This document shows, piece by piece, positions 23,987-50,146 of a stretch of DNA of 64,000 nt. Source of the DNA: an uncultured Acidobacteriota bacterium (GTDB taxonomy: Bacteria > Acidobacteriota > Thermoanaerobaculia > UBA5066 > Gp7-AA6). The stretch lies in assembly GCA_963775725.1 (NCBI GenBank), contig CAVZKA010000002.1:1253004-1317003 (forward strand), in the 5' to 3' direction. Made by a program: the position numbers and the translations under genes. How positions within the stretch are numbered: the first letter of the stretch is position 1; every line of letters begins with the position of its first letter. The notes under the pieces were generated by a model. The model saw only the letters and a program-made list of their open reading frames with translations, was not told the origin of the DNA and ran no database searches.

Positions 23987-24005
23987 CGCGCGCGGGGACA
24001 GCGCC

Positions 24006-26217: not shown

Positions 26218-26232
26218 TGGCCCCGATCTTGC
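26218..26232 (+). promoter_or_regulatory. sigma54 (-24/-12) promoter TGGCCC-N5-TTGC
   Basis: It has exact consensus spacing (GG at 26219-20, GC at 26231-32). It lies 31 nt upstream of the repeat-protein ATG and directly downstream of the sigma54 activator gene. Confidence 0.7.
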
Positions 26233-26262
26233 CCTTATGGTCTGGCAAGGGAGGAAACAAAA

Positions 26263-26838: not shown

Positions 26839-26861
26839 GCGACCGATCCCTGGTACCTCGA

Positions 26862-26892
26862 GCGCCCCGCACACGCGGGGCGCTTTCTTTTT
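26862..26892 (+). terminator. rho-independent terminator of the repeat-protein gene
   Basis: The hairpin GCGCCCCGC-acac-GCGGGGCGC is followed by TTTCTTTTT. The opposite strand has no U-tract. Confidence 0.7.
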
Positions 26893-26904
26893 GGGGAGAC
26901 TCCG

Positions 26905-29100
26905 CTACCAGGCCACCGACTGCACCCAGCGCTTCACGATGCGCCAGCTACGGGAGGCATACGAAGCCCGACGGCCGTGGATCTTGGCGTAGCCGACCAT
27001 GCCCGGCAGCAGCGTGCCGTCGGCGTTGTCGAACGTCGCGAGCGCGACGAACTGCTCCGGGCGTTCTCCCGGCGCCGCGGGGTCCTCTCCGGCACGTGCC
27101 GTCGCGGGACTGGCCAGCGTCGCGGGCGAGATCGAGGTGATCGTGCCGCGCGCCGGCGCCATCCTCCCGCGGAAGAGCGCGGTGACCGTGTCCTTCGGCG
27201 CGAGGTCGTCGAGCAGCCGTTCGGTCACCGCGAGGTCGGCGCGGAGGCGGTCCACCTCGCCCACCTCGGCGAGCAGAGTGCCCGCCGGCACGGACCGGCC
27301 CTCGAGGTCGCGCAAGTGCGCCGTGAGCATGCGTCCCGCGATCGGACTGCGCACGACGAGCCGGTCCTCCCGCACCCGATCGCTCGTCAGGGCGGCGTCG
27401 ACCGACCTGCTCTTCCGCTCGGACTCGAAGACGTCGCCGGCCTGCGCGTCCTGGCGGGCCCGGCCCACCTGGCCGTCGAGCCGCTGCCGCTCGCTCGTGA
27501 GCCGGGCCAGCTTCTCTGCCAGCGCGGGGCTGGCGAGCCGGAAGACGGGCTGGCCGGCCGCGACGCGGTCGCCTTGCTGGACGAGCACCTGCGTGACGAC
27601 GGCGTCTTCCGGCGCCTCGAGCCGCACCGTGGCCACGGGCCTCAACTGCGCGGAGGCGCGGAGCGTGCGGCGGCTCCAGGGCAGGAAGAAGAGGAGGGCG
27701 AGGACCGCGGCGGCGGCCAGGAGTCCCGTGCGGACGCGCGGCGACATGAGCAGCTCCTTCTTGTCGAGGTAGAACAGCTGCGCCGTGCGCGTCACGAGGC
27801 GCACCCGCTTGCGGAAGAGCCGGTACATCGTCACGACGACGAGGATGACGGCCCAGTTCGGGAAGAAGTGGTTGTAGAGGTTGAAGAAGAGCCCCCCGAT
27901 GAATCGCATGATCACCGCGACCCAGGCGAGCGCGAGCGTCCCGAAGACCCAGTAGATCCGGCGCTTGCGCCGCGACGCCGGCGGGACCTCGACGGGCAGG
28001 TGCAGGACCTTCTTCTGGAAGACGGCGCCGATGTAGCGGAACGACTCCTCGCGCAGGTCCGGGATCTCGACGATCGAGGACAGCGCGTAGTAGCCGTCGA
28101 TCTTGATCAGGGGATTGATGTTGAAGAAGACGGTGGAGACGCCCGTGAAGAGCACGGTCTTGAAGGCGATCTCGTGGAGCAGCGTGTCCGGGTACGAGGC
28201 GACCCACACGACCGTCGCCACCGAGCACATGAAGGCCTCGACGTAGATGCCGGCCGTCGTGACCCAGAGCCGGTGCCACTTGTTCTCGAAGAGGACCGAG
28301 TCGGTGGTGTCGCAATAGAAGGCGGGCGTGAAGTACAGCAGCGCGATCCCGATGTCGTGGACGTCGCCGCCGTAGATCTTGACCCCGTAGGCGTGGGCGA
28401 ACTCGTGGATGAGCCCGATGAAGGTGAGGATGAAGAAGAACTGGAAGACGTCGAGCAGGGGCTTGGACGTCAGGGCGTAGAGCTCCATCGTCCCGTTCCA
28501 GACCACGTCCCAGTGGATCATGATGACGCCGAAGGCCCAGGCGTTGAAGACGAGCGCGGCCGCCACGACGGGCGGGGTCCAGATCCAGCGGACGTACTTC
28601 ACCGTCCGATCGAGGAACCGGTTGGGATCGAGGACGTGGAAGAGCAGGAAGAAGGGGTTGAAGCCCTCGGCCTTCTCCTCGGCCGCCCGCTGGCGCGCGT
28701 TCCGGCTCTTCGCGAGCAGGGTCAGGTTGCGCTCGGCGACGGTCTGCGCGAGCAGGTCCATCGCGCGCAGCATCTCGAAGTACTCGAGCACGAGGGCCAT
28801 CTCCACCTTTTCGGCGGGGAAGCGCTCCTGGTACTCGGCCTGGATCTCCTCGAGCGTCCGCGTGCCGTCGAAGAGGGCGATGAGTCCCCACTCGTCGTCC
28901 TCGAAGTTGTAGTACTTGGTCGCCTCCGGGTTCTTGACGACCCACTTGACCTCGGAGAGCTGAACGACCCTCCGGATCACGGCGTCCGGGCGGATCGCCG
29001 GCCGATTGCTCCCGGCGCCGCGTCGGGCGGCGAGGGCGACGGCGCCTTCTTCGGGGCGCGTGGCGGACAGGAGCCGGGAAGGGCGCGCTTCGGCGTTCAC
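26905..29100 (-). CDS. fusion protein: PqqD-like (RRE) domain + M50 site-2-protease domain + HlyD-family adaptor domain
   Basis: The N-terminus has a PqqD-like segment (WGLIALFDGTRTLEEIQAEYQERFPAEKVEMALVLEYFEMLRAMDLL). The polytopic M50 core has HEFAH and NINPLIKIDG. A TM and a coiled-coil/beta HlyD region follow. Its GTG start overlaps the upstream stop (GTGA). Confidence 0.8.
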   Translation of the reverse strand: MNAEARPSRLLSATRPEEGAVALAARRGAGSNRPAIRPDAVIRRVVQLSEVKWVVKNPEATKYYNFEDDEWGLIALFDGTRTLEEIQAEYQERFPAEKVEMALVLEYFEMLRAMDLLAQTVAERNLTLLAKSRNARQRAAEEKAEGFNPFFLLFHVLDPNRFLDRTVKYVRWIWTPPVVAAALVFNAWAFGVIMIHWDVVWNGTMELYALTSKPLLDVFQFFFILTFIGLIHEFAHAYGVKIYGGDVHDIGIALLYFTPAFYCDTTDSVLFENKWHRLWVTTAGIYVEAFMCSVATVVWVASYPDTLLHEIAFKTVLFTGVSTVFFNINPLIKIDGYYALSSIVEIPDLREESFRYIGAVFQKKVLHLPVEVPPASRRKRRIYWVFGTLALAWVAVIMRFIGGLFFNLYNHFFPNWAVILVVVTMYRLFRKRVRLVTRTAQLFYLDKKELLMSPRVRTGLLAAAAVLALLFFLPWSRRTLRASAQLRPVATVRLEAPEDAVVTQVLVQQGDRVAAGQPVFRLASPALAEKLARLTSERQRLDGQVGRARQDAQAGDVFESERKSRSVDAALTSDRVREDRLVVRSPIAGRMLTAHLRDLEGRSVPAGTLLAEVGEVDRLRADLAVTERLLDDLAPKDTVTALFRGRMAPARGTITSISPATLASPATARAGEDPAAPGERPEQFVALATFDNADGTLLPGMVGYAKIHGRRASYASRSWRIVKRWVQSVAW

Positions 29101-31529
29101 GGAAGAATGGGCCAGACCTTGTTCCAGATGTACCGGACGGGCTTGCGGAAGAGGGCCGTCACGATGCGCCGCGTGCCGACCCGGACCTTGGCGGTTCCGA
29201 GCATGCCGGTCTTGAGCAAGCCGTCGGGATTGGCGATCGCGACCTCGGCGATGAGGAACCGCTCCGGCCCCTCCTCGCGGACGCGGGCGGCGACGCGCTC
29301 GACGGTGCCGCGGAAAGAGCGACCCGGGAACGGATTGAACTTGAGCGTTGCCGCCTGGCCCTTCTGGATGAGGCCGGACTCGGACTCGGGGATCGCGATC
29401 TCTGCCCGGAGCGAGCGGACGTCCGCGACGACGCACAGCTCGGCGCCACGCGCGAGCAGCTGCCCGACGCGCTCCTCGATGCGCGGCGTGATCACCACGC
29501 CGTCCACGGGCGCGCGGAGCTCGGTCTGTCCCAGCCGCTCCTGCCCGAGCGCGAGGCGCGCCTGTGCCTGCTCGCGGCGCTTCGTCGCGTCGTAGAGTGC
29601 GCCCGGGTCCGCGGCGTCGCGGGCGCGCGAGACTTCGCTGTCGGCCACGGCGACGGCCGCGCGCGCCGCGGCGAGGTCGGCCACGTAGCTCTCGTTCCGG
29701 AGGGCGGCGATGAGGTCGCCGGCCTTCACGGCGTCCCCCTCGCGGTGCACGACCGAGGCCACGACGCCGTCGACGAGGGACGTCACGGCGGCCCGGCGCG
29801 CCGGGAGCACCCGGGCGGGCGCTGCGATCCGCAGGGGCCACGGCAGGATGCAGAGCGCGAGCACCGCGGCGGCGATCCCGATCGTCCACCCGCGGCGCCG
29901 GCCCTGCGGCAGCGCGCCGATCTTGCGGCGCTTTTCCAGCAGTGGCTTCCAGAACCCGGCCAGCGGGACCTGCTGGTAGAGCTGGGCGTTGCGCACGGCG
30001 ACGGTGGTCTGGTTGACCAGGATCGAAAGCAGGTCCTGCGTTCCCTCGTCGAAGAGCAGCGCCTCCTTGCTTTCGAATCCGAGCGCGCCGAGCTTCCCCT
30101 CGTCGTCCTTGAGGAGCACGCCGAAGAACGACCGCAGCCCGGTCTCGCGGAAGATCGCGCGGAACTTCTCCTCGGTCTCGGGCCGGTCTGCCGTGAGCTC
30201 GCCGTCTTCGAGCTGGGTCACGGCGGTGTCGGTCCCCGAGAGGAAGACCCACTGGAGGAGACCTTCCATCCTTTGGACATCGGGATCCTGGCGGTTGACC
30301 TCCGTCGCGCCCGAGATGGCGCCCAGGCGCAGCTTGCCCTTGCCGAGGATGGCGATGCCGCAGCGGTCGTACGGGATCAGCGCCGAGGTGGCGTTGACAA
30401 TGGTCTGCATCACCTTGTCGAGATCGAGCGTCGACGTGATCTCGCGGCTGACGGCGAGCAGGGCGTCCAGCTCCTCGACCTTCTTCTCCGCCTCGTACTG
30501 GCGCGCGTTGCGCAGGGCCCGAACGGCCTGGCGGGCGAGGTCGGCCAGCAGCTCCTCGTCCTCGCCGGAGAACTCGGGATGACGGCCGCGCTTGTTCACG
30601 AGGACGAGAGCGCCGATCGAGAGCTCGTCCTCGACGAGCGGGATGGCGAGGACCGAATGGATGGTGTGGCCCTCGTTCTCCGAGGCGAGCTCGTCCGAGG
30701 GGGGGATGCGGTTGCGACGCAGGTTTTCCTGGCCGGCGATGACGTCGCCGACGACCGGGGCGCCCACGGCCGGCGGGGCGTTCTCCACGTCGTAGTTGTC
30801 GTTGACCGCGGTCGCCGCCAGCGCCACGTCTTCGCCGTCGAGCGTCCAGAGGGACGCAACCTCGGCGCTCGTGAAGTCGACCGCCTTGCGGACGACGAGC
30901 TCCGAGAGCTCCTCGAAGTCGATCGTCGAGCCGAACGCCTTGGAGAGATCGTAGAGGTTGGTCAGCCGCTCGATCGCGTGCAGCATGCCGACGGTCTTGC
31001 GTTCCGAGCGCAGCGCTCGGCCGAGGGCGGGCGCCGCCTGCTCGAGGAAGCGCTCGAGCCGGGCCAGCGCATTGTCGGCGTCCGGGATCTCGGTGAAGAA
31101 CAGGGCGAGCAGGCCGACGATCAGCCCCTCGGCCTCGAGCGGCACGGCCAGGCACGCGCGCAGCGTCGCCGGCACGCCGCGCAGGAAGGGGTCGCTCGAC
31201 GTCAGCTCGGCGCCCGTGAGCACGAGCGCCTGCCGGTCGCGCACGAGGTCGTGCACGAACCCGGTCTCGCGCGGCGCCGCCCGCCGCAGCAGCTTCTCGA
31301 CGCCCTTGCCCGACGCGCCGATGCAGAGGAAGAGCGGATTGACGGTGTCGGGCGCCCACAGCAGCGCGGCGTCGGCGCCGGCCATCGAGGCGCTCCAGCG
31401 GGCGGCCCAGCCCGAGGTTTGGGAAAGATTTTCGCAGAGCGCCAGCTCCGCCAGGGCGGATGCTTCGGCTTCGGCGCCGTCCGCCGCGTCGACCGTTTCG
31501 TCCTCGGGCGCTTCGGGTTCGTCCGCCAC
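29097..31529 (-). CDS. triple-GAF-domain sensor fused to HlyD-family adaptor domain
   Basis: Three GAF-like domains are followed by a TM (WTIGIAAAVLALCILPW) and an HlyD-type coiled-coil/barrel domain. A GTG start with a GAAGGAGAC RBS lies 44 nt after the STAS gene. Confidence 0.8.
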   Translation of the reverse strand: MADEPEAPEDETVDAADGAEAEASALAELALCENLSQTSGWAARWSASMAGADAALLWAPDTVNPLFLCIGASGKGVEKLLRRAAPRETGFVHDLVRDRQALVLTGAELTSSDPFLRGVPATLRACLAVPLEAEGLIVGLLALFFTEIPDADNALARLERFLEQAAPALGRALRSERKTVGMLHAIERLTNLYDLSKAFGSTIDFEELSELVVRKAVDFTSAEVASLWTLDGEDVALAATAVNDNYDVENAPPAVGAPVVGDVIAGQENLRRNRIPPSDELASENEGHTIHSVLAIPLVEDELSIGALVLVNKRGRHPEFSGEDEELLADLARQAVRALRNARQYEAEKKVEELDALLAVSREITSTLDLDKVMQTIVNATSALIPYDRCGIAILGKGKLRLGAISGATEVNRQDPDVQRMEGLLQWVFLSGTDTAVTQLEDGELTADRPETEEKFRAIFRETGLRSFFGVLLKDDEGKLGALGFESKEALLFDEGTQDLLSILVNQTTVAVRNAQLYQQVPLAGFWKPLLEKRRKIGALPQGRRRGWTIGIAAAVLALCILPWPLRIAAPARVLPARRAAVTSLVDGVVASVVHREGDAVKAGDLIAALRNESYVADLAAARAAVAVADSEVSRARDAADPGALYDATKRREQAQARLALGQERLGQTELRAPVDGVVITPRIEERVGQLLARGAELCVVADVRSLRAEIAIPESESGLIQKGQAATLKFNPFPGRSFRGTVERVAARVREEGPERFLIAEVAIANPDGLLKTGMLGTAKVRVGTRRIVTALFRKPVRYIWNKVWPILP

Positions 31530-31573
31530 GCGTCTCCTTCGCCCGTGGGCGAGACCCGGGTGTTGGGAACTCC

Positions 31574-31909
31574 CTAGAAGCTCGAGACCGCAGCCTCCAG
31601 GTCTTCGTGGATCTCGAAAACGGAATCGAGCTTCGTCATCTGGAGGAGCTTGCGGACCTGCGGGCCCGCGTGGAGGAGCTTGGCCGAGCCGCCCTCTTTC
31701 TGCGCCAGCGTCAACGCGCGGACGAGGGCGCCGAGGCCCGAGCTGTCGAGAAAGCCGACCGCCGAGAGGTCGACGAGCAGGTTGACCCGGCCCTCTTCGA
31801 GAAGCCGCGTGATCGTCTTCTTGAAGGTCGTCTCGGGCTCGCCGATGACGAGGTCGCCGGTCACGATCAGGATGGTGATTTCCCCGTCTTCGCGGGTGGT
31901 CAGTTCCAT
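31574..31909 (-). CDS. STAS-domain anti-sigma-factor antagonist (SpoIIAA-like)
   Basis: The protein is 111 aa with a conserved phosphorylatable Ser region (GFLDSSGLGALV). Confidence 0.8.
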   Translation of the reverse strand: MELTTREDGEITILIVTGDLVIGEPETTFKKTITRLLEEGRVNLLVDLSAVGFLDSSGLGALVRALTLAQKEGGSAKLLHAGPQVRKLLQMTKLDSVFEIHEDLEAAVSSF

Positions 31910-32089
31910 AAGGTGGGCGGATTATGTCAAACGTCGCGGTCGCTCCGCTACGGGGTCTGCGCCCCTGCGGGGCGCACCGGCGGCCGGCTCGCCCGGATGC
32001 GGGCTCGACCGGACGCCTGACCCCTCCGCTGCGCGACCGCTCCCGCGGCGCGAACCTCCTCCCTTCCATGAGAAGGCCGACCGGCGTCA

Positions 32090-33620
32090 AGGGGGGAGCC
32101 CGGGAGTCGCAGTAGGCAGGGACTGGTTGGAAGCAGACAGAAGTCGTTTCGCCAGGCTTCCATTCGCACTCAGTTCGGCTCGGTAAAGAGCCGGGTGCAT
32201 GGTGGGGTCCAACCAGTCGAGGCGCTGCCATCTCACTAACGGTCTTGCAGTAGCCCGTGGTTGTGGGCTGCGAGAGGACCGAGGGAGGAGTCGCAGTCGC
32301 CGGGACTGGGCGATTGACTTCAGTCATGGACATCGAGATAGGTGACTCTGGTTATCGAAGACTAGGCGGCCGAGACTCTGGTTTTGCGATCCTGGCGGTA
32401 AAGAGGTTCGTAAACTTCGCCGGTGCGCCAGAGGTGATGGAGCAGGACGGCGAGCTTGCGTGAGACGGCAACGATGGCTTTTTTCTTACCGAGCTTTCCG
32501 CCGCGGGAAGAGATGTTCTGTCCGAAGCGGCGCAGATCGCAGTCCGGGCCGAAGGGCCCCAGGATGTAGTGGGCCGCGTTCACGAGAAGCCGGCGCAACC
32601 CCGAGTCCCCCTGCTTGGTGATCCGTCTTTGCGGATCGGAGTGACCCGACTGCTTTCGTCCGGGAACCAGTCCAAGGAAGGCTCCGACTGTCCGACTCTT
32701 CGCGAAGCGCCGTGGGTCGCCCAGAGTCAGGACGAAGGCCAGTGAAGTGATCGGCCCGATGCCTTTGACCTGGCGCAGCAGCCTGGTCTGCGGGTACTGG
32801 TCATCGGCCAGGGTCTCGATCATCTGGCCCAGGGCTTTGATCTGCTCAGTGAGCGAAGCGATTTGCTCGAGCACCGGCAAGAGCACGGGCTCTAAGAGCT
32901 CCGGGATCTGCTTGGAGGCGGTCTTGGAGAAGCAGCTGGTGGAACAGGCCGGAAGCCTCGTCCCGAAGGACTTCACCACGCCACGCACGTGGTTGACCAG
33001 AAGCGTTCGGGCTACGACCAGAGCGTCCCGCGAGCGCAACAGCGCCAAGTCTTTCTGCAACGAAGCATCCCGGTGCTCAACCGGACAGAGCAATGCCGGC
33101 TCGAAGCGAGCCAGCCGCGCCAGGTACATGGCGTCAACCCGGTCATCCTTGCTCGGGTTCTCGTAGATCAGTCGAAGCCTGCGCGAGTTGGCGACGAGGA
33201 CTTCGTGGCCGTATTCCACGAGCTGTCGCGACACCCACGGCGAGTGGGTCCCCGTCTCAAGGGCAATACGCATCGGCGGGCGGTTCGAGAAAACCCTCCT
33301 CAGACCCGCCTCCGTCGTTGCCCCCCGGCCTTCCTCGACGATCTGGCCCTCGGCGTCGAGGATTGCGAATTGACTGAATCGATCTCCAAGATCCAGCCCG
33401 ACCGTCTGTCTTGCCACCTTGCTAAGCTCCCTCATGGCCGATCTCCCTTCTGGGCCTCGAGCCCGTTCCAATGCAGCCTTTTTACAAGGACTGCGCAGGG
33501 AGGTCGGCCTTCTCATCCCATCTCCCTTCGGTCGGGAGACTATTTGCGCCGCGAGGGGATAGAAGCAGTGGGGCTGTTCTTCGGTCCTGCCGTTTCTCGT
33601 CGCGGGGGCGGGCGCGGATT
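32090..33620 (-). mobile_element. IS110-family insertion sequence (boundaries approximate)
   Basis: It encodes a DEDD transposase, and local base composition drops here. Imperfect direct repeats GGAGTCGCAGT…GGGACTGG lie at about 32103 and 32287. Confidence 0.45.
32362..33435 (-). CDS. IS110-family transposase
   Basis: It has the DEDD_Tnp_IS110 N-domain (VGLDLGDRFSQFAILD) and the C-terminal Transposase_20 motifs (IKGIGPITSLAFV, KSRTVGAFLGLVPGRKQSGHSD). Confidence 0.8.
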   Translation of the reverse strand: MRELSKVARQTVGLDLGDRFSQFAILDAEGQIVEEGRGATTEAGLRRVFSNRPPMRIALETGTHSPWVSRQLVEYGHEVLVANSRRLRLIYENPSKDDRVDAMYLARLARFEPALLCPVEHRDASLQKDLALLRSRDALVVARTLLVNHVRGVVKSFGTRLPACSTSCFSKTASKQIPELLEPVLLPVLEQIASLTEQIKALGQMIETLADDQYPQTRLLRQVKGIGPITSLAFVLTLGDPRRFAKSRTVGAFLGLVPGRKQSGHSDPQRRITKQGDSGLRRLLVNAAHYILGPFGPDCDLRRFGQNISSRGGKLGKKKAIVAVSRKLAVLLHHLWRTGEVYEPLYRQDRKTRVSAA

Positions 33621-33631: not shown

Positions 33632-34636
33632 ATGACTATCGATCGTCGGTCGCTCGTGGCTCTATCCGCGGCTTCGCTTCTGCACGCGCGCCTTTCCCGG
33701 GGGACGACCCCGTCCGCGACCCCATCGAGCAAGGAAATCAAGACGGCGGGGATTCGCCTGATCACGGTCGACGGCAAGTACAAGGTCTGGACCAAGAAGC
33801 TCGGCGCCGGGAAGATCAAGGTCCTGACGCTGCACGGCGGTCCGGGAGTGACGCACGAGTACTTCGAGTGCTTCGAGGACTTCCTGCCGCAGGCGGGCGT
33901 CGAGTTCTATTACTACGACCAGCTCGGCTCGTTCTACTCGGACCAGCCCGACGACAAGAGCCTCTGGACGATCGACCGCTTCCGCGAGGAGGTCGAGCAG
34001 GTGCGCGCCGCCCTCGGGCTCGAGGGCTTCTTTCTCTACGGGCAGTCGTGGGGAAGCATGCTCGCGATCGAGTACGCGCTGAAGTACCAGAAGCACCTGA
34101 AGGGGCTGGTCCTCTCGAGCATGACGGCCTCGATCGCGTCCTACGTCGAGTACGTCAACACGCTGCGCGCGGCGCTGCCGGCCGCGGTCCTCGCGACGCT
34201 CGTCAAGTACGAGGAAAAGGGCGACTACGAGAACCCCGAGTACCAGGCCGTGATGTTCAAGGAGGTCTACGGCCGGCACGTCTGCCGGTTGGATCCCTGG
34301 CCCGACCCGGTCGCGCGGGCGTTCAAGCACATCTCCCCGCAGGTCTACAACACGATGCAGGGCCCGAACGAGTTCGTCGTGACCGGGACGTTCAGGGATT
34401 GGGACCGCTGGAAAGATCTCGCGAGGATCACCGTGCCCACGCTCGTCATCGGCGCCCGGTACGACGAGATGAATCCCGGCGACATCCGGAAGATGGGCAG
34501 GCTCCTGCCGAACTCGCGTGTCGCGATCTGTGAGAACGGAAGCCACCTGGCGATGTGGGACGACCAGGAGGCATACTTCGCGGCCCTGATCGGGTTCCTC
34601 AAGGATGTCGACGGCGGCCGGTTTCGGAAACCATAG
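33632..34636 (+). CDS. proline iminopeptidase-like alpha/beta hydrolase (S33) with Tat-like signal
   Basis: It has an HGGPG oxyanion motif and a GQSWGS nucleophile elbow. The N-terminus is RRSLVALSAASLL. Confidence 0.85.
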   Translation: MTIDRRSLVALSAASLLHARLSRGTTPSATPSSKEIKTAGIRLITVDGKYKVWTKKLGAGKIKVLTLHGGPGVTHEYFECFEDFLPQAGVEFYYYDQLGSFYSDQPDDKSLWTIDRFREEVEQVRAALGLEGFFLYGQSWGSMLAIEYALKYQKHLKGLVLSSMTASIASYVEYVNTLRAALPAAVLATLVKYEEKGDYENPEYQAVMFKEVYGRHVCRLDPWPDPVARAFKHISPQVYNTMQGPNEFVVTGTFRDWDRWKDLARITVPTLVIGARYDEMNPGDIRKMGRLLPNSRVAICENGSHLAMWDDQEAYFAALIGFLKDVDGGRFRKP

Positions 34637-35010
34637 CCGGGACCCGGCATCCAAGGGGTCATGAGAATCCATTTTTTTGGCCCCTCCCGGGAGGACGCCC
34701 GCAGCCGGCACATGTGGGAATTGCTATCCCGCTCGGTCCGACGCAGATCCGGCACTCGCCGTCTCCGCGTACTACGGGGGTGACAGGCGCGGTTCGAAGA
34801 TCTCTTTCCGGATCCCCGGGGGCCGGGAGCGCGAGGCGGTCGAAATTAAGACCGCCTCAGTCGCCGTCGGAAGGGGTTAATATCCCGGCCCATCGGCCCG
34901 CGCCCCTTGGCGGGCCGGCACTCGAATTCGACGCGGGTAACTCGGCGCAGCCATGTCGGCTGGGCCGATTCGCATGGCGCCCCCAAAAGGGGGATGCAAA
35001 GGAGACGAGG

Positions 35011-35418
35011 ATGAAAAAGGGCGATCTGACGACGAAGGCAATCGGACTGGCGATCGCCGGCGTGCTCGCGGGCTCGGGCCTGGCGAGCGCGATGGTGACG
35101 GCGGGAGCGGGCACGTCCGCGAAGGCCGGCGACGAGAAGGCCAAGGACACCAAGGCCGCCTCGGACAAGCACGTCTGCAAGGGCATGAATTCCTGCAAGG
35201 GCACCGGCGGCTGCAAGAGCGGCGACGCGGGCTGCGCGGGCAAGAACTCCTGCAAGGGCAAGGGCGGCTGCGCCTCGGCCGACATGAAGCACTCCTGCAA
35301 GGGTATGAACTCCTGCAAGGGCCAGGGCGGATGCAAGACCGGCGACGGCAGCTGTGCGGGCAAGAACTCCTGCAAGGGCAAGGGCGGCTGCGCGGTTCCC
35401 GTCAAGAAGGCGGCCTAA
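35011..35418 (+). CDS. bufA: bufferin-type RiPP precursor (DUF2282-like, 12 Cys) with Sec signal peptide
   Basis: A signal peptide is followed by two copies of a 6-Cys unit, CKGMNSCKGxGGCKxGDxxCAGKNSCKGKGGCA. An AAGGAG RBS precedes the start. It is followed by DUF692 and DUF2063 genes. Confidence 0.75.
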   Translation: MKKGDLTTKAIGLAIAGVLAGSGLASAMVTAGAGTSAKAGDEKAKDTKAASDKHVCKGMNSCKGTGGCKSGDAGCAGKNSCKGKGGCASADMKHSCKGMNSCKGQGGCKTGDGSCAGKNSCKGKGGCAVPVKKAA

Positions 35419-35433
35419 CTCCATCGCATTTTT

Positions 35434-35455
35434 CCGGGGGCCTTCGGGCCCCCGG
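35434..35455 (+). promoter_or_regulatory. perfect 9-bp GC hairpin (CCGGGGGCC-ttcg-GGCCCCCGG) between precursor and modification-enzyme genes
   Basis: It lies in the 63-nt bufA–bufB spacer and has no strong U-tract. It could be an attenuator or RNA-stability element. Confidence 0.5.
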
Positions 35456-35481
35456 ACTTCTTCCCACCCGGGACCTGAAAC

Positions 35482-36348
35482 TTGAAACCGGAAACACACG
35501 CTCGCAATCGCTGGGGGCTGCCCGATCTCGGCATCGGCGTCGGCCTGCGCACGGTGCATTACCCGCACATCCTCGAGCAAAAGCCAGAGGTCGACTTCTT
35601 CGAGATCCTTTCCGAGAACTACATGGATACCGGCGGGCGTCCGCTCTGGGTGCTCGACCAGGTCTCGGAGCGCTACCCGATCGTGCTGCACGGCGTCTCG
35701 ATGAACATCGGCAGCACGGACCCGCTCGACCGCGACCACCTTTCGAAGTTGAAATCCCTCGCCACGCGCACCCGCGCCGCATGGGTGTCCGATCACCTGT
35801 GCTGGACAGGGGTCGCGGGGCGCAACACGCACGACCTGCTGCCAATGCCGCTGACGGAAGAGGCCCTGCGCCACGTGACGGCGCGCGTGAAGGAGGTCTC
35901 CGAGATCCTGGAGAGGCCGCTGATGCTGGAGAACGCGTCCACGTACGCCGAGTTCGCGTCCTCGTCCATGCCGGAGTGGGAGTTCTTCGCCCGTCTCATG
36001 GAGGACGCCGACTGCGGGATGCTGCTCGACGTCAACAACGTCTACGTCAGCTCCTTCAACCACGGGTTCGATCCGAGGCAGTACCTCGACACGATCGACC
36101 CCGCGCGCGTCACGCAGTACCACCTGGCCGGCCACACGAACAAGGGCACGCACATCATCGACACGCACAACGACCACGTGATCGAAGCGGTCTGGGACCT
36201 CTACCGCCACTCGGTTGCCCGCACGGGCAACGTCGCGACCCTGCTCGAGTGGGACGCCGACATCCCCGAGTTCGGCGTCGTCCACGCCGAGGCCCTCAAG
36301 GCCCGCGCCCACCGGCGAGAGGGGAAGGCCGTTGCCGCCGCCTCTTGA
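35482..36348 (+). CDS. bufB: DUF692 / MNIO (multinuclear non-heme iron oxidative enzyme, MbnB-like) family protein
   Basis: It has a TIM-barrel xylose-isomerase-like fold and the conserved N-terminus LPDLGIGVGLR…HYPHIL plus His/Asp/Glu metal ligands. TTG start. Confidence 0.85.
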   Translation: MKPETHARNRWGLPDLGIGVGLRTVHYPHILEQKPEVDFFEILSENYMDTGGRPLWVLDQVSERYPIVLHGVSMNIGSTDPLDRDHLSKLKSLATRTRAAWVSDHLCWTGVAGRNTHDLLPMPLTEEALRHVTARVKEVSEILERPLMLENASTYAEFASSSMPEWEFFARLMEDADCGMLLDVNNVYVSSFNHGFDPRQYLDTIDPARVTQYHLAGHTNKGTHIIDTHNDHVIEAVWDLYRHSVARTGNVATLLEWDADIPEFGVVHAEALKARAHRREGKAVAAAS

Positions 36349-37177
36349 GTTTCCGCTGCCGCGCATCCAGCGCTGGATGCAGGCGGTCATCGAGCAGCCG
36401 GGCACGGTGGACGAAGCCGTGGAGGCCGCGGCCGCCCGCGCCGAACTCGATCCCGCGGACATCGGCCGCGTGATCCTGCCGTCGAAGACCCTGACGGCCG
36501 TCGAGCGTGTCGGGGTCTACCAGGGCATGTACCTGCTGCGGATGATCGAGGCCCTCGAGGGCGACTATCCCGCCGTGGCCCACCTGCTCGGCGACGAGGA
36601 GTTCGCGGCGCTCGTCACCCGCTACGTCGCCGCGCACCCGTCGGTCAGCTACACGTTCAACCGGCTCGGCCGCGGCTTCCCGGAATTCGTCCGCGCGTCG
36701 AAGGGCGTTCGGCAGAGGGCCTTCGCCGCCGACCTCGCTCGCCTCGAGCTCGCGATCACGGAGGTCTTCGACGCGCCGCAGTCGCCGGCGTGGCCGGCCG
36801 AGCAGATCGCGCGCATCCCGCAGCACGCGTGGGTGGGCGCCGTGTTCCACCCGATCGCGGCCTTCCGTCTTTGCGCGTTCAACCATCCGGTCAACGCGTA
36901 CCTCCAGTCGGTCAAGGAGGAGAATCACGACCACCCGGGCACGGCGCGCCGGACGACCCGGGTCGCCGTGTGGCGCAAGAACTACGAGGTCTGGCGCCTC
37001 GACCTCGGCAAGCCGGCGTACGATTTCCTGGCCGCGCTTGCGAAGGGACGGTCCTTCGGCAAGGCCGTGGCTACCGCGGCGAAGGGGCTCCAGGGCGATC
37101 CCGGCCAGCAGCTCTTCCGCTGGTTGCGCGACTGGGTCGCCGAGGGTATGTTCGCCTCGGTCGACGTTTCGCGGTAG
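36332..37177 (+). CDS. bufC: DUF2063-family partner protein (MbnC/BufC-like)
   Basis: Its start overlaps the DUF692 stop. The conserved DUF2063 N-terminal region is present (RWMQAVIEQPG…YQGMYLLRMIEAL). The start is TTG at 36332 or ATG at 36377. Confidence 0.8.
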   Translation: MPPPLEFPLPRIQRWMQAVIEQPGTVDEAVEAAAARAELDPADIGRVILPSKTLTAVERVGVYQGMYLLRMIEALEGDYPAVAHLLGDEEFAALVTRYVAAHPSVSYTFNRLGRGFPEFVRASKGVRQRAFAADLARLELAITEVFDAPQSPAWPAEQIARIPQHAWVGAVFHPIAAFRLCAFNHPVNAYLQSVKEENHDHPGTARRTTRVAVWRKNYEVWRLDLGKPAYDFLAALAKGRSFGKAVATAAKGLQGDPGQQLFRWLRDWVAEGMFASVDVSR

Positions 37178-37219: not shown

Positions 37220-39208
37220 ATGGACGTTGCGTCGACTCGGGAATGGCTCGAGGCGGACGGCCTGGGCGGCTTCGCGTCGGGCACCGCCGCCGGGATCCGC
37301 ACGCGGCGCTACCACGCGCTGCTGCTGACCGCGACGAGGCCGCCCACGGGCCGCATGGTGCTCGTCAACGGCTTCGACGCCTGGGTCGAGACGTCCGCCG
37401 GCCGTTTCGCGATCAGCTCGCAGGCTTACGCCCCCGACGTCACGCATCCGGACGGCGCGACGCGCATCGCCGCCTTCGAGCTCGAGCCCTGGCCGCGGTG
37501 GACCTTCGCGCTCCCCGACGGGACCCGCATCGCGCAGGAAATCTTCGTCCCGAAGGATTCCTCCCTGGCCGCCGTGTCCTGGAAGCGCCTTGCGGGTACG
37601 GGAGCGGCGACGCTGACGATGCGGCCGTTCCTGTCGGGCCGCGACTACCACGCGCTCCACCACGAGAACGCGGCGTTCCGGTTTGACGCAGACGAAGAGC
37701 CGGGAGGCCTGCTCGCGTTCCGGCCGTACCCCGACGTGCCCCCGGTCGTGGTGCGCTCGAACGGCTCCTACGACGCCGCGCCCGAGTGGTACCGGAATTT
37801 CTTCTATGCCGAGGAGAAGGCGCGCGGGCTCGACAGCGCGGAAGACCTCGCGTCGCCGGGCACGTTCGGTTTCGATCTCTCGGCCGGCGAGGCCGTCTGG
37901 CTCGCCGCGGCAGAGGGACACGAGGCCGTGCTCGGTGTGGGCGGCGCCGAGGCCGCGCTCGCGGCCCTGCGCTCGGCCGAGCGCCGGCGGCGGGCCTCGC
38001 TCGGCGACCGGCTCGACCGCGCCGCGGACGCCTACCTCGTCCGGCGCGGCTCCGGCCGGACGATCGTCGCCGGATATCCGTGGTTCACCGACTGGGGACG
38101 CGACACGTTCATCGCGCTGCGCGGCCTGTGCCTCGCCACCGGGAGGCTCGCGGAGGCGGAAGGCATCCTGCTCGAGTGGTCCGGCGCCGTCTCGCAGGGG
38201 ATGCTGCCGAACTTCTTTCCCGATGCGGCGAGCGAGCCGGAATTCAACGCGGTGGACGCCTCGCTCTGGTACGTCATCGCCGTGTACGAACACTTCGAAG
38301 CGATGGCCGCCGCGGGGCTCGTGCCTTCACGAACGACCGTGCGCAGGCTCCGGGACGCGGTCGAGGCGATCCTCGCCGGCTACGCCGCGGGCACCCGCTT
38401 CGGGATCCGCGCCGACGGCGACGGCCTGCTCGCCGCGGGTCGGCCCGGCGTGCAGCTGACCTGGATGGATGCCAAGGTCGGCGATTGGGTCGTGACGCCC
38501 CGGATCGGAAAACCCGTCGAGGTGCAGGCCCTCTGGCTGAACGCGCTCTGGATCGCGGGTGCCTTTTCGGACGAGTGGAGGGAGCTCCACGACCGGGGCC
38601 TCGCCTCCTTTCACGAGCGATTCTGGAACGAGGCCGCGGGTTGCCTGTACGACGTCGTCGACGTCGATCACGCGCCGGGAACCGTGGACTCCGCTTTTCG
38701 GCCGAACCAGATCTACGCCGTCGGAGGCCTGCCCTTCGCGCTCGTCGAGGGCGAGCGGGCGCGCCGGATCGTCGACGCCGTCGAGGCGAGGCTCGCGACG
38801 CCGGTCGGTCTTCGCTCGCTCGCGCCGGACGATCCCGCCTACGTCGGACGTTACGAGGGCGGCCCCCGCGAGCGCGACGGCGCCTACCACCGGGGGACCG
38901 TCTGGCCGTATCTGGCCGGCGCGTTCGTGGAGGCCTGGGTCCGCGCGCGGGGCGCAACGGAGGATGCGAAGTCCGAGGCGCGCCGCCGCTTCCTCCCCCC
39001 GCTCATTGCCCATCTCGACGAGGCGGGCCTCGGCCACGTCTCCGAGATCGCAGACGGCGACCCGCCGCACACCCCCCGCGGTTGCCCGTTCCAGGCGTGG
39101 TCCGTCGGCGAGCTCCTGCGGATCGACCGGGTGATCCTGGCGGGGTCAGGTCTGAATTCTTCGGAGTTTGGTCGCCAAGGAGCCGAAGGCCCGAAGCTCC
39201 TGACCTGA
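37220..39208 (+). CDS. glycogen debranching enzyme-like protein (GDE N-domain + amylo-alpha-1,6-glucosidase domain)
   Basis: It has GDE_N and GDE_C motifs (GYPWFTDWGRDTFIAL…). The last about 20 codons are contributed by a palindromic repeat element. Confidence 0.85.
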   Translation: MDVASTREWLEADGLGGFASGTAAGIRTRRYHALLLTATRPPTGRMVLVNGFDAWVETSAGRFAISSQAYAPDVTHPDGATRIAAFELEPWPRWTFALPDGTRIAQEIFVPKDSSLAAVSWKRLAGTGAATLTMRPFLSGRDYHALHHENAAFRFDADEEPGGLLAFRPYPDVPPVVVRSNGSYDAAPEWYRNFFYAEEKARGLDSAEDLASPGTFGFDLSAGEAVWLAAAEGHEAVLGVGGAEAALAALRSAERRRRASLGDRLDRAADAYLVRRGSGRTIVAGYPWFTDWGRDTFIALRGLCLATGRLAEAEGILLEWSGAVSQGMLPNFFPDAASEPEFNAVDASLWYVIAVYEHFEAMAAAGLVPSRTTVRRLRDAVEAILAGYAAGTRFGIRADGDGLLAAGRPGVQLTWMDAKVGDWVVTPRIGKPVEVQALWLNALWIAGAFSDEWRELHDRGLASFHERFWNEAAGCLYDVVDVDHAPGTVDSAFRPNQIYAVGGLPFALVEGERARRIVDAVEARLATPVGLRSLAPDDPAYVGRYEGGPRERDGAYHRGTVWPYLAGAFVEAWVRARGATEDAKSEARRRFLPPLIAHLDEAGLGHVSEIADGDPPHTPRGCPFQAWSVGELLRIDRVILAGSGLNSSEFGRQGAEGPKLLT

Positions 39209-39222
39209 CCCTGGCAGGAAGG
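39142..39222. repeat. palindromic repeat element copy A (GGGGTCAGGTCTGAATTCTTCGGAGT…CCTGACCTGACCC)
   Basis: It shares a 26-nt core (2 mismatches) with copy B at 42349 and terminal inverted repeats with copy C at 46257. It overlaps the 3' end of the debranching-enzyme ORF. Confidence 0.6.
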
Positions 39223-39411: not shown

Positions 39412-41886
39412 ATGAAGAGGGGTTGGAGAGTGTTTCTGCCAGTCCTGATCCTCGCCCTCGGGGCCGTTGCTCCTCTTGGGGCGCAAGTGGTCACGGGCGA
39501 CCTCGGTTCGCCGAGCGCCACGACGACGATCAGCGGCCAGCAAATCCCTCCTCCGCCTCCCAAATTCGGCGGCGTGATCAAGGAGAGCGCCAGGGACTCG
39601 AAGCCGTGGTGGCCGCCGCGCGTGGTGCCGCCCAAGGGCGCGCCCAACGTGCTCCTCATCATGACGGACGACCAGGGCTACGGCGTCAGCGGCACGTTCG
39701 GGGGCGTGATCCCGACCCCGGCGCTCGACCGCATCGCGAAGAACGGCCTCCGGTACACGGAGTTCAACTCGACCGCGCTCTGCTCGCCGACGCGCGCCGC
39801 GCTGATCACCGGCCGCAACCACCACGCCGTGGGATTCGGCGTGATCTCGGAGCTTTCGACGGGTTACCCGGGCTATGACTCCATCATCGGCCCCGACAAC
39901 GCGACCATCGGCCGGATCCTTTCCGGCAACGGCTACGCGACGTCGTGGTTCGGCAAGAACCACAACACGCCGGGCTTCCAGTACAGCGCCTCGGGCCCCT
40001 TCGACCAGTGGCCGACGGGCATGGGATTCCAGTACTTCTACGGCTTCATGGGCGGCGAGACCGACCAGTGGCAGCCGTACCTCTTCAAGGGCACGTCGCA
40101 GATCTTTCCGTGGATCGGCAAGCCCGGCTACAACCTGACGACCGACCTCGCCGACGAGGCGATCGCCCACATGCAGAGCCTGAACGCGGCGGCGCCCGAG
40201 CAGCCGTTCTTCGTCTACTACGTCCCGGGCGGCAGCCACTCGCCGCACCAGCCCACGAAGGAGTGGATCGAGAAGTTCAAGGGCAAGTTCGACATGGGCT
40301 GGAACAAGATGCGCGAGGAGATTTTCGCCAACCAGAAGCGGCTCGGCGTGATTCCAGCAAACGCGAAGCTGACGCCCTGGCCCTCGGAGCTCCCGACCTG
40401 GGACTCGCTCTCCTTCGACAAGAAGAAGCTCTACGCGCGTCAGGCCGAGGTCTATGCGGCCTACACCGCGTACACGGACTACGAGATCGGCCGCGTGATC
40501 CAGGCCGTCGAGGACATGGGCAAGCTCGACAACACGCTGATCATCTACATCGACGGCGACAACGGCACGAGCCCGGAAGGGACTCTCTCCGGGACGTTCA
40601 ACCAGATGACCGCCTACAACGGCATTCTCGACGTGCCCGAAGCCCTTCAGCTGCTCCACTACGAGGATTGGGGCTCTCCGGCGACCTATCCGCACATGGC
40701 GGTGGCGTGGTCCTGGGCGTTCGACACGCCGTTCAAGTGGACCAAGCAGGTGGCGTCGCATTTCGGCGGCACGAGGCAGGGCCTGGCGATCTCCTGGCCC
40801 GGCCACATCAAGGACGTGGGCGGCATCCGACCCCAGTTCCACCACATCATCGACATCGTCCCGACGATCCTGGAAGCCACGGGCATCAAGGCTCCGGAGG
40901 AGGTCGACGGCATCCAGCAGAAGCCGATCGATGGCGTGAGCATGGTGTACACGTTCAACGCGGAGAACGCCAACGCCCCCTCGACGCGCAAGACCCAGTA
41001 CTTCGAGATGGCCGGCAACCGCGGCATCTACCACGACGGCTGGTACGCGAACACGCACCCGCCGGTGCCGCCGTGGGAGCTGAACGCGAAGTTCCCCGAC
41101 ATCGCGGACTACAAGTGGGAGCTCTACCACCTCGCCGAGGACTACTCCCAGGCCGACGACCTCGCGGCGAAGATGCCGGACAAGCTCAAGCAGATGCAGG
41201 CTCTCTTCCAGCAGGAGGCGGTCAAGTACCAGGTTCTGCCGATCGACAACTCGCAGTTCCAGCGCGCGATCTCGCCGCGCCCGAGCGCCATCGCGGGCAA
41301 GACGGTGTTCACGTACGCGGGTGAGAACCCCGGCATCCCCGTCGGCAACGCTCCGAGCATCCTCAACAAGTCGTTCACGATCAAGGCCGAGATCGAGGTC
41401 CCGTCGGGCGGCGGCGAGGGCATGATCGTGACCGAGGGCGGCCGCTTCGGCGGCTTCGGAATGTACCTGCTCAAGGGTAAACCGGTCTTCACCTACAACC
41501 TCCTCGACTTGGAGCGGTTCCGCTGGGAAGGCGGCGAGGGCGCCCGGGACTGGATGGGCGACTCGCTGAAGGCCGGCAAGCACACGATCGAGTTCAACTT
41601 CCATTACGACGGTCCCGGCATCGCGAAGGGCGGGACCGGCATCCTCATCGTCGACGGCCACGAGTTCGCCACGAAGAAGATCGAGCACACGATTCCGTTC
41701 CTGCTGCCGCCGGACGAGACCTTCGACGTCGGCGTGGATACCCGCACTCCGGTGGACTCGAGCTACGAGATCCCGTTCCGTTTCAACGGAAGGATCGACA
41801 AGCTGACGATCAAGCTCGGACCGTCGCAACTGGCGGAGGCCGACCAGAAGAAGGCGGCGGTCGCGATCGCCCGGGCGTCCGACTAG
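39412..41886 (+). CDS. arylsulfatase-family enzyme (formylglycine-dependent sulfatase), secreted
   Basis: It has a signal peptide, the sulfatase signature CSPTRAALITGR and the metal-binding DDQG motif. Confidence 0.9.
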   Translation: MKRGWRVFLPVLILALGAVAPLGAQVVTGDLGSPSATTTISGQQIPPPPPKFGGVIKESARDSKPWWPPRVVPPKGAPNVLLIMTDDQGYGVSGTFGGVIPTPALDRIAKNGLRYTEFNSTALCSPTRAALITGRNHHAVGFGVISELSTGYPGYDSIIGPDNATIGRILSGNGYATSWFGKNHNTPGFQYSASGPFDQWPTGMGFQYFYGFMGGETDQWQPYLFKGTSQIFPWIGKPGYNLTTDLADEAIAHMQSLNAAAPEQPFFVYYVPGGSHSPHQPTKEWIEKFKGKFDMGWNKMREEIFANQKRLGVIPANAKLTPWPSELPTWDSLSFDKKKLYARQAEVYAAYTAYTDYEIGRVIQAVEDMGKLDNTLIIYIDGDNGTSPEGTLSGTFNQMTAYNGILDVPEALQLLHYEDWGSPATYPHMAVAWSWAFDTPFKWTKQVASHFGGTRQGLAISWPGHIKDVGGIRPQFHHIIDIVPTILEATGIKAPEEVDGIQQKPIDGVSMVYTFNAENANAPSTRKTQYFEMAGNRGIYHDGWYANTHPPVPPWELNAKFPDIADYKWELYHLAEDYSQADDLAAKMPDKLKQMQALFQQEAVKYQVLPIDNSQFQRAISPRPSAIAGKTVFTYAGENPGIPVGNAPSILNKSFTIKAEIEVPSGGGEGMIVTEGGRFGGFGMYLLKGKPVFTYNLLDLERFRWEGGEGARDWMGDSLKAGKHTIEFNFHYDGPGIAKGGTGILIVDGHEFATKKIEHTIPFLLPPDETFDVGVDTRTPVDSSYEIPFRFNGRIDKLTIKLGPSQLAEADQKKAAVAIARASD

Positions 41887-41958: not shown

Positions 41959-42362
41959 ATGAATGAAACGAACCCGGGTCTCTCCGGAAAGACCCTGACG
42001 TTTTCCGCGGTCGTGGAGATCGCAACCGCCGCCGCACTCATCGTCGACCCGGCGTTCGTCGCGAGGCTTCTGCTCGGCGCGGAGGTCGGCGGCCTGGCGG
42101 TCGTGATCGGCCGCTGCTTCGGGCTCGCGTTGCTCGGCCTCGGACTTGGCATGCCTGCCGCAACGCGGCGGTTCTTCGGGCCGGCGCGGGGATGCTGGTC
42201 TACAACGGCCTCATCGCCGGTTACCTCGCCTTCCTGGCGGCGTCCGCCAACCTTCGGGGCCCCCTGCTGTGGCCGGCCGTCGTCCTGCATGCCGCCGTGG
42301 CGCTGCTGCTGACGCGGCCCGCGGGACGGACGGCATCCGCAAATGGATGGGGTCAGGCCTGA
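41959..42362 (+). pseudogene. small hydrophobic membrane protein with one apparent frameshift
   Basis: A strong GGAGG RBS precedes the start. The N-terminus MNETNPGLSGKTLTFSAVVEIATAAALIV… is in one frame and …GMLVYNGLIAGYLAFLAASANLRGPLLWPAVVLHAAVALLL in another. The shift lies in a gggccggcgcgggg run. Confidence 0.5.
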
Positions 42363-42435
42363 AATCTTCGGAGTGTGGGCGGCCGCAGCGCGAGATTCTG
42401 AAGACTCTCGAGTTCTGAACTTGTCAGACCTGCCC
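42349..42435. repeat. palindromic repeat element copy B (GGGGTCAGGCCTGAAATCTTCGGAGT…GTCAGACCTGCCCC)
   Basis: See copy A. It overlaps the stop region of the small membrane-protein gene and lies just upstream of doxX. Confidence 0.6.
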
Positions 42436-42457
42436 CCCATTAGTTCAAGGAGGCGTC

Positions 42458-42919
42458 ATGGGAACACTGCGCCGGTGGATTCACTCGGTCTCGGACAGCC
42501 TTCGCTGGTTGCCGCCGACGGTCGCGCGGCTCACCGTCGGCTGGATCTTTCTCCAGTCGGGCTGGGGCAAGCTCCAGAACCTGCCCAGGGTCGTGGCCTT
42601 CTTCACAGACCTCGGCATTCCCGCGCCGCAGCTCCAGGCGCCGCTCGCGGCGACGGCGGAATTCGTTTGCGGCGCGTTGCTGCTCGGGGGGCTCTTCACG
42701 CGCGTCGCGACCCTGCCGCTGATCGCCACGATGCTGGTCGCCATCCTGACGGCGAAGAAGGCCGACATCCACGAGCTGTCGGACCTCTTCGGCATGGGCG
42801 AGTACCTCTACATCTGCCTCCTGTTGTGGCTCGGAGCCTACGGGGCGGGCCCGTTCTCCCTCGACGCGGTGTTTGCAAAGCGGCTCGAGAGCTCCGCGCG
42901 GCCCCTGCCCGGACGCTGA
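42458..42919 (+). CDS. DoxX-family membrane protein
   Basis: It has an AAGGAGG RBS, four TM helices and DoxX motifs (VGWIFLQSGWGKL). Confidence 0.85.
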   Translation: MGTLRRWIHSVSDSLRWLPPTVARLTVGWIFLQSGWGKLQNLPRVVAFFTDLGIPAPQLQAPLAATAEFVCGALLLGGLFTRVATLPLIATMLVAILTAKKADIHELSDLFGMGEYLYICLLLWLGAYGAGPFSLDAVFAKRLESSARPLPGR

Positions 42920-46249: not shown

Positions 46250-46256
46250 ACCACCG

Positions 46257-50137: not shown

Positions 50138-50146
50138 AGTCGCAAA

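Follow-up and report, generated by a model that had tools for sequence, protein, structure and literature searches.

A likely three-gene Buf2-type bufferin operon with a duplicated six-cysteine precursor in an uncultured Acidobacteriota genome

Bufferins (captophorins) constitute the largest group of peptides synthesized by ribosomes and modified after translation (RiPPs) that are made by oxidative enzymes dependent on multinuclear non-heme iron (MNIOs), and represent a recently recognised copper-defence system. Two families are distinguished, namely Buf1, in which a DUF2282 precursor with 4 cysteines is encoded in a bufABCD operon that includes a DoxX gene, and BUF_6/12Cys, or Buf2 (PMC11626156). 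The founding buf2 operon of Caulobacter vibrioides (CCNA_02999-03001; PMC11626156, PMC12452194) encodes BufA2, BufB2, and BufC2 only; the central cysteines of its product each showed a mass change of -4.03 Da, and the first and last cysteines formed a disulfide bond (PMC11626156). Both Caulobacter buf operons are induced by copper, and BufB and BufC are needed for function and modification, while DoxX is not (PMC11626156). Precursors with 12 cysteines account for approximately 10% of Buf2 and were modelled as duplicated 6-Cys domains (PMC12452194). More broadly, MNIOs with DUF2063 partners containing a RiPP recognition element (RRE), denoted PME1, install 5-thiooxazoles, and the class name captophorins was proposed for their products (PMC13097082). 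Here we analysed a 64,000-nucleotide stretch of an uncultured Acidobacteriota genome (assembly GCA_963775725.1, contig CAVZKA010000002.1, positions 1,253,004 to 1,317,003), hereafter the window, in which positions 35011-37177 very likely hold a three-gene Buf2-type bufferin (captophorin) operon of the order bufA2-bufB-bufC. The earlier note on this DNA, made by a model from the sequence alone, had proposed a bufferin-type RiPP operon in which a precursor with a signal peptide is joined by an MNIO and a DUF2063 protein, and this is supported.

The first gene, bufA2 (35011-35418, forward strand), starts with ATG behind the Shine-Dalgarno (SD) sequence AAAGGAG (34998-35004) and encodes a bufferin precursor of 135 residues. 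Its N-terminus consists of MKKGDLTTK and an 18-residue hydrophobic stretch that ends in ASA and contains no lipobox, so that a putative signal peptide occupies approximately 35011-35091. A Lys/Ala/Asp-rich linker then leads to two 40-residue units, KHVCKGMNSCKGTGGCKSGDAGCAGKNSCKGKGGCASADM (unit 1, 35167-35286) and KHSCKGMNSCKGQGGCKTGDGSCAGKNSCKGKGGCAVPVK (unit 2, 35287-35406), which are identical at 31 of 40 positions and are encoded by a 120-nt tandem duplication with 83% identity at the DNA level. The cysteines are located at positions 56, 62, 68, 75, 81, and 87 of the first unit and 96, 102, 108, 115, 121, and 127 of the second, giving the spacing 6-6-7-6-6 twice, which bears out the proposal of 12 cysteines arranged as two 6-Cys units. 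In an alignment with 55 homologues, all 12 fell in columns that were invariant or at least 90% conserved. The units are of the 6-Cys CKG type, and EGKCG repeats are absent from the precursor. The model NF050166 (“BufA2 family periplasmic bufferin-type metallophore”) matched both units with 59.7 bits (E = 2.5e-16). No match to PF10048 (DUF2282, four conserved cysteines) was obtained at E ≤ 0.01, and the sole Pfam match was a sub-threshold one to DUF7640 (17.3 bits against 28.1). The DUF2282 label given to the precursor in the earlier note was therefore wrong, and the family had to be corrected from Buf1/DUF2282 to Buf2.

The second gene, bufB (35482-36348, forward strand, TTG start with no obvious SD sequence), encodes the MNIO (DUF692) maturase. 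Its product scored 361.9 bits against NF050167 (MNIO_BufB), above the cut-off of 310, and fell below the cut-offs of the rival MNIO models HvfB (261.6 against 360), ApyH (98.9 against 400), MbnB (TIGR04159; 56.6 against 325), and ChrH (44.6 against 600). Its Pfam family is PF05114 (MbnB_TglH_ChrH), matched with 364 bits, and its closest relative in the PDB is 3BWW, a DUF692 protein/MNIO of Histophilus (E = 1.5e-51). The motifs LHGVS, SDHL, LENAS, LDVNN, YHLAGH, IDTHND, and LEWDAD were all found in BufB, and those containing His, Asp, Glu, or Asn are common to BufB and 3BWW. By comparison with MNIO structures, these His, Asp, Glu, and Asn residues are the putative iron ligands. In all nine relatives with a readable start, bufB begins with TTG or GTG without an obvious SD sequence.

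The third gene, bufC (36332-37177, forward strand, TTG start), encodes the DUF2063 partner of the PME1 type, for which the score against PF09836 was 71.5 bits (cut-off 27.2); both enzymes thus passed the profile searches that the earlier note had proposed. The start codon TTG 36332 overlaps the end of bufB, whose stop codon lies at 36346-36348, by 17 nt, in agreement with the start/stop overlap already pointed out from the sequence, and is preceded by the SD sequence GAGAGGGGAAGG at 36318-36329. This TTG is most likely the start rather than ATG 36377, because residues upstream of the latter are conserved in relatives. When the bufC reading frame was read from 36215, the HvfC model matched residues 96-308 weakly but over its full length (46.7 bits against 142). 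The C-terminal part of BufC may be RRE-like, a fold predicted by analogy. A search of the BufC sequence against the PDB gave no relative at E ≤ 0.01.

For comparison, 80 genome loci encoding BufB relatives were fetched (denoted by L-numbers), of which the 12 closest, L001-L011 and L030, are referred to as the clade. The nearest loci belong to metagenome-assembled genomes (MAGs) of Acidobacteriota/Thermoanaerobaculia, with 92% identity in BufB and 96% in the precursor. The order bufA2-bufB-bufC was kept in nearly all 80 loci, which cover several phyla, and precursors with 12 cysteines were common among them. Gene identities and order, the duplicated 6-Cys precursor, and the conservation of the operon in relatives are shown here. 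The locus is a Buf2 member of the 12-Cys form, by which the Acidobacteriota lineage adds a member to an already known family; it provides a clean instance of this minority two-domain form from an uncultured soil lineage and leaves the understanding of how the bufferin system works unchanged.

Several points weigh against this assignment. The precursor score lies 0.3 bits under the curated BufA2 cut-off of 60, which places it in a divergent branch of the family, and lone 6-Cys units of these lineages reach only 33-45 bits. An AlphaFold2 prediction from a 56-sequence alignment gave a mean pLDDT of 47.2 and a pTM of 0.17, leaving the two-domain fold unconfirmed. The putative Sec-type signal peptide was judged by eye from the N-terminus. 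Furthermore, when 10 flanking proteins encoded at 19978-32333 and 46697-52743 were searched with Pfam, no copper-resistance, CsoR/CueR, or SigF/NrsF genes were detected, so that copper control is not indicated by the context. The near-miss itself probably arises because the model was tuned to other lineages, not because the family is a different one, since NF050166 gave 41.3 bits for unit 1 and 35.0 for unit 2 scored singly, and 33-65 bits for relatives (33 for a 6-Cys orthologue and approximately 64 for other 12-Cys precursors). The curated model is at its limit for these lineages, and many such precursors remain unnamed in annotations, as a 6-Cys unit by itself stays far under the cut-off and most of the 2458 precursor homologues found at E ≤ 1e-5 are named “hypothetical”. 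One of the clade loci, L003, with 87% BufB identity, carries a 6-Cys precursor (3235-3522) with one unit only, resembling unit 1 at its start and unit 2 at its end, which suggests that one unit was lost via recombination between tandem repeats.

The locus resembles Caulobacter buf2 in its signal-peptide precursor with a 6-Cys framework, its MNIO and DUF2063 genes, the three-gene operon without DoxX, and the equivalog-level match of BufB. It differs from that founding member in having a precursor with two 6-Cys units that scores just under the BufA2 cut-off, in its Acidobacteriota host, in the absence of SigF/NrsF from the 10 flanking proteins, and in a structured 5′ leader of the clade’s own. 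Operons of the Buf1/gig type, which often contain SigF/NrsF, share with it the MNIO and DUF2063 pair, the predicted thiooxazole chemistry and copper-buffering role, and a signal-peptide precursor; however, the Buf1 precursor is a DUF2282 protein with 4 cysteines, and Buf1 operons typically end in doxX, which the present operon does not. The PME1-dependent MNIO chemistry predicted here also underlies oxazolin (Haemophilus hvf), gonophorin, and fontiphorin (PMC11252979, PMC13097082), which likewise derive from secreted peptides rich in cysteine; HvfX, a protein of the DoxX type, is associated with that class, and the MNIO nearest to BufB in the PDB is the Histophilus protein. Their precursors, in contrast, carry EGKCG repeats and are served by HvfB and HvfC, whose model cut-offs the window proteins failed to reach. 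Methanobactin (MbnA/MbnB/MbnC) shares the MNIO fold and the oxidative rearrangement of cysteine to a copper-binding heterocycle that is predicted here. It is set apart by the low MbnB score of BufB, by a partner that is MbnC instead of DUF2063, and by a cleaved leader in place of a signal peptide; moreover, methanobactin contains oxazolone/thioamide pairs and serves copper acquisition, whereas the bufferin product is predicted to contain thiooxazole and would serve copper detoxification.

Upstream of the operon, we noted a candidate -10 box, TAATAT (34878-34883, forward strand), approximately 128 nt before the bufA2 ATG, on the basis of positional conservation: a TAnAAT-type hexamer occupies the equivalent place in 13 of 13 clade sequences. 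TTGACA-like -35 boxes are found approximately 17 nt away in L003, L004, L005, and L009, and the window has no such box. The bufA2 promoter is probably located at this TAATAT, with transcription starting near 34890, although a generic sigma-70 promoter and terminator scan returned no promoter and left the bufA-bufB hairpin described below unflagged. The 5′ leader (34930-35010, forward strand) can form the hairpins P1 (34942-34968, loop AUGUC) and P2 (34980-34993, CCCCC-AAAA-GGGGG), followed by the SD sequence. Both were recovered when 12 of 13 clade sequences were folded individually. Compensatory changes altering both partners were seen in 4 of the 9 P1 pairs, and the share of paired cells was 85%, compared with 27-51% when the partners were slid; none of 500 shuffles reached its covariation score, for which the support is modest because the sequences are related. 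The covariance model R1 gave 26 matches, all directly before a bufA2 reading frame (13 genomes and 13 soil-metagenome contigs), and each of the 13 metagenome matches precedes a frame beginning MKKGDL. Scanning positions 34600-35520 against Rfam with a threshold of E ≤ 10 yielded chance-level matches only, and none of the Rfam families matched the leader.

That this leader of approximately 85 nt, comprising P1 with its AUGUC-type loop, the G/C hairpin P2, and the SD sequence, is a new cis-regulatory RNA appears rather unlikely; if it were, it might tie the synthesis of the bufferin to a signal (metal or redox) or to an RNA-binding protein, and would replace the SigF/NrsF control known in Caulobacter. 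Three related readings were rejected. A CsoR-type operator formed by P2 (CCCCC-N-GGGGG) is disfavoured by the C/G-tract spacing of approximately 2-6 nt in relatives, which suits a hairpin loop better; the ATG in the P1 loop as the start of an upstream open reading frame is contradicted by ATT at this place in four relatives; and the weaker R1 matches in unrelated metagenome contigs (L134, L135, L138, L147, L128, and L119) do not indicate a wider family, as they were selected by the search pattern itself. Between bufA2 and bufB, a GC-rich hairpin with a 10-bp stem and a UUCG loop (35433-35456, forward strand) was located by its conserved position. Stems of 10-16 bp, likewise GC-rich and differing in sequence, occur there in 13 of 13 clade genomes. 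A T-rich run follows most of them, and the tail in the window is T-poor. The hairpin probably acts in an attenuator-like manner, terminating part of the transcript or stabilising much of it.

We infer the following mechanism, its maturation steps from the characterised systems of Caulobacter, Fontimonas, and Haemophilus. Transcription would begin near 34890 with a leader of approximately 120 nt that ends in the two hairpins and the SD sequence, and this strong SD sequence together with ATG would allow efficient translation of bufA2. The hairpin at 35433-35456 would end or stabilise much of the transcript after bufA2, bufB would be translated from TTG without an SD sequence, and bufC would be translationally coupled to bufB; taken together, the leader SD, the hairpin, the weak bufB start, and the coupling would yield far more precursor than enzyme. 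In the cytoplasm, BufC would present the precursor to BufB through its RRE-like C-terminal part, and BufB, acting as an iron- and oxygen-dependent MNIO, would oxidise the four central cysteines of each 6-Cys unit to 5-thiooxazoles, with -4.03 Da for each. The modified precursor would be exported by Sec, the signal peptide removed after ASA27, and a disulfide bond formed between the first and last cysteines of each unit. The predicted mature peptide would be approximately 108 residues long, comprise two domains, and carry eight thiooxazoles at most, with a total mass change of approximately -36 Da for eight heterocycles and the disulfides, and would bind and buffer periplasmic copper. The chemistry given in the earlier note, namely conversion of cysteine to a thiooxazole-type heterocycle with -4 Da per residue and copper binding, agrees with what was reported for the class (PMC11626156, PMC13097082).

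The earlier note further held that such operons usually end with a DoxX gene and that the present one was split by insertion or rearrangement. The first statement is true of buf1, but bufD is missing from the operon that founded buf2, and the order A-B-C-DoxX was encountered in two of the 80 loci only (L038 and L062). The window contains a single DoxX gene (doxX, 42458-42919, forward strand; PF07681, 79.9 bits), which starts 5.3 kb past bufC, with three genes and two REPIN-type elements in between, and is not part of the bufA2-bufB-bufC transcription unit. The placement of DoxX was determined by an iterated hidden Markov model search of all open reading frames of the 80 loci, and separately for a subset of 48 with at least 5 kb on both sides. 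DoxX was absent from the fetched flanks of 53 loci (32 of the subset), was embedded in the operon or adjoined it on its strand in 14 (10), lay divergently upstream in 6 (2), and was distal in 7 (4). Among the 12 clade loci, none had DoxX next to bufC, and an orthologue with 66-89% identity was present in L001, L002, L003, and L009, where it lies 3.0-8.8 kb past bufC and always downstream of the debranching-enzyme gene. The relatives share the separated layout, so that a split in this genome is not supported; the synteny comparison recommended in the earlier note thereby gave an outcome that the note itself had counted as refuting, the function of DoxX being left aside. As DoxX is absent nearby in most loci, the lack of an adjacent DoxX gene is the usual state in this branch and not a sign of disruption.

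It is possible, if doubtful, that doxX is a displaced bufD: insertion of the debranching-enzyme gene and a variable cassette would have broken up an original bufABCD operon, and DoxX would continue to act for the bufferin in trans. The window DoxX scored 73 bits against NF050144 (HvfX, “Cu-binding RiPP maturation protein”; cut-off 80) over model positions 1-87 of 165, and its orthologues in L002 and L009 scored 73.4 and 85.6 bits, compared with 60-70 bits for seven DoxX proteins in or next to buf operons, 38.6 for the distal DoxX of L060, and 40.9 for Escherichia coli YphA. It is also 44-50% identical to DoxX proteins of Polyangiaceae whose genes divergently adjoin buf2 operons, in five clade genomes DoxX has stayed within 3-9 kb of bufC on its downstream side, and the REPIN elements together with gene gains and losses mark the intervening region as prone to rearrangement. 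However, the HvfX match of the window protein is below the cut-off, all HvfX matches are limited to the N-terminal half of the model, and the two unrelated proteins, L060 and YphA, were the only outgroup controls scored. No clade genome has DoxX adjoining bufC, the debranching-enzyme gene stands between them wherever DoxX is kept, and in the next-closest lineages, L012-L031, DoxX was found only in L027 (fetched flanks up to 10 kb). Synteny of this kind is also expected without selection at 77-92% BufB identity to the window, and DoxX is absent from the founding buf2 operon and dispensable for Buf1 modification and function (PMC11626156). The linkage of 3-9 kb is loose. The HvfX scores are no evidence of a former operon; they provide modest evidence that the window DoxX belongs to a RiPP-associated DoxX subfamily and could act in trans in a BufD/HvfX-like manner. 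The gene adjoins a TonB-dependent-receptor-like gene, as it also does in L002 and L003.

Two other arrangements of DoxX were observed among the 80 loci. In L062, an Acidobacteria MAG, DoxX directly follows bufC and is fused at its C-terminus to a region with sequence resemblance to MsrA, a methionine sulfoxide reductase (11366-12544). In Planctomycetota (L051, L059, L061, L063, L071, and L078), the layout is bufA-bufB-doxX-bufA′-bufC, with two precursor genes that have C-terminal extensions.

The region between bufC and doxX begins with a glycogen-debranching-enzyme-like gene (37220-39208, forward strand; GDE_N and GDE_C), which starts 42 nt after bufC and follows it on the same strand in 7 of the 12 clade relatives. 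A generic scan found no terminator-like site between the two genes. The debranching-enzyme gene is a neighbour outside the RiPP system that may be co-transcribed with bufC. It is followed by a sulfatase gene (39412-41886) and a small membrane-protein gene (41959-42362). The latter is frameshifted, with a change of frame near 42150 relative to the intact orthologue L004:19487-19954, and would be either a pseudogene or the result of an assembly error. A maturation motif of the Cys type, CSPTR, is present in the sulfatase, and a radical-SAM/SPASM protein is encoded approximately 8 kb downstream (50147-51610).

Two palindromes of REPIN type were identified in this region. Element A (39135-39219) folds with -50.4 kcal/mol (z = -4.45) and supplies the last codons of the debranching-enzyme gene; element B (42349-42437), between the small membrane-protein gene and doxX, folds with -40.8 kcal/mol (z = -2.3). 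The earlier note correctly placed a lone DoxX gene 5 kb downstream, behind the debranching-enzyme, sulfatase, and small membrane-protein genes, but the palindromes do not bracket that whole block, since A and B enclose only the cassette of sulfatase and small membrane-protein genes. Both have GGGGTCAGGYCTGAA termini, which are common to elements in relatives, and a short third copy (46256-46279) follows the TonB-dependent-receptor-like gene. The window contains 4 occurrences of the 15-mer core, where chance would give 0.19, and the hairpins fold with -41 to -53 kcal/mol. The same termini flank a Y1_Tnp gene, an IS200-like REP-associated tyrosine transposase (RAYT), in L007 (14061-15152, 57.1 bits) and its 79%-identical copy in L030 (13203-14291), and the palindromes of the window are therefore regarded as REPIN/RAYT-type elements. 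They resemble REP/REPIN elements with RAYT (IS200-like Y1) in being 70-90-nt palindromes with conserved termini placed after gene ends; they differ in that the 64-kb window contains only three copies and no RAYT gene.

The window copies coincide exactly with the places at which relatives have additional genes. Behind the debranching-enzyme gene, L001, L007, and L009 have a gene judged from its sequence to be GH63/MGH1-like (approximately 895 residues); an outer-membrane-protein-like gene precedes DoxX in L001, L003, and L004; and the pair of sulfatase and small membrane-protein genes is present in L001 and L004. L002 lacks all of them, its debranching-enzyme gene being joined to DoxX via a single 90-nt palindrome. 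The REPINs mark a stretch prone to rearrangement that is located downstream of the debranching-enzyme gene, not inside a former bufferin operon.

With the operon taken as Buf2-type, the function and chemistry of its product have to be weighed. The peptide might buffer or sense something other than copper, such as a soft metal (Au, Hg, or Ag) or oxidative or sulfur stress. The lack of copper genes and regulators among the 10 flanking proteins scanned would fit this, as would literature accounts of fusions between MerC and bufferins, of gig operons induced by gold, and of a possible connection between DoxX and other stresses. We consider it unlikely, as Buf1, Buf2, oxazolin, fontiphorin, and bulbicupramide, all characterised, bind or respond to copper, and the NCBIfam name for the family is that of a copper RiPP. 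Regarding chemistry, the oxazolone/thioamide pair of methanobactin is an isomer of 5-thiooxazole with the same mass change, and earlier work on oxazolin and MovA mistook one for the other. Formation of such pairs by BufB is nevertheless very improbable. Alkylation-assisted heteronuclear multiple-bond correlation and absorbance at 305 nm assign 5-thiooxazole to all products of PME1-dependent MNIOs examined, and oxazolin was revised (PMC13097082). In the preprints 10.64898/2025.12.15.693703 and 10.64898/2026.06.05.730506, 5-thiooxazole is regarded as prevalent among the modifications made by MNIOs, and the former supports it for bufferins specifically. BufB, in addition, is an equivalog-level match to the BufB model, not to MbnB. 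Finally, that the Cys-rich frame encodes an unmodified, metallothionein-like periplasmic protein lying fortuitously beside the MNIO and DUF2063 genes is hardly credible: the literature does contain many precursor genes unlinked to MNIO genes and possibly unmodified, but here the A-B-C order is kept in nearly all 80 loci across several phyla, gene spacing is tight, and bufC starts ahead of the bufB stop.

Upstream of bufA2 and on its strand lies a gene for a hydrolase of the proline-iminopeptidase family (33632-34636; TIGR01250, 350 bits) with a Tat-like N-terminus, DRRSLV. It occupies this place on the same strand in 12 of 12 close relatives, the order of this gene, bufA2, bufB, and bufC being constant among them, and is absent beyond the clade. 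A role as a bufferin accessory was rejected in view of this absence and of the gene’s own spacing and promoter region; it is probably a neighbour retained by synteny only. Just upstream of it, an IS110-family transposase gene (32362-33516, reverse strand) has no counterpart in the 80 related loci and hence represents a window-specific insertion.

A further observation concerns the export signal of the precursor. Among precursor frames beside related BufB genes in L012-L079, 47 of 77 contain a twin-arginine motif (RR.F...), and at the homologous place where many relatives have this Tat-like RR, the clade of the window has KK (within 35011-35040 in the window). The bufferin literature searched describes Sec signals and makes no mention of Tat. 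As a smaller possibility, the clade may have changed the export of its bufferin from Tat (RR.F) to Sec (KK).

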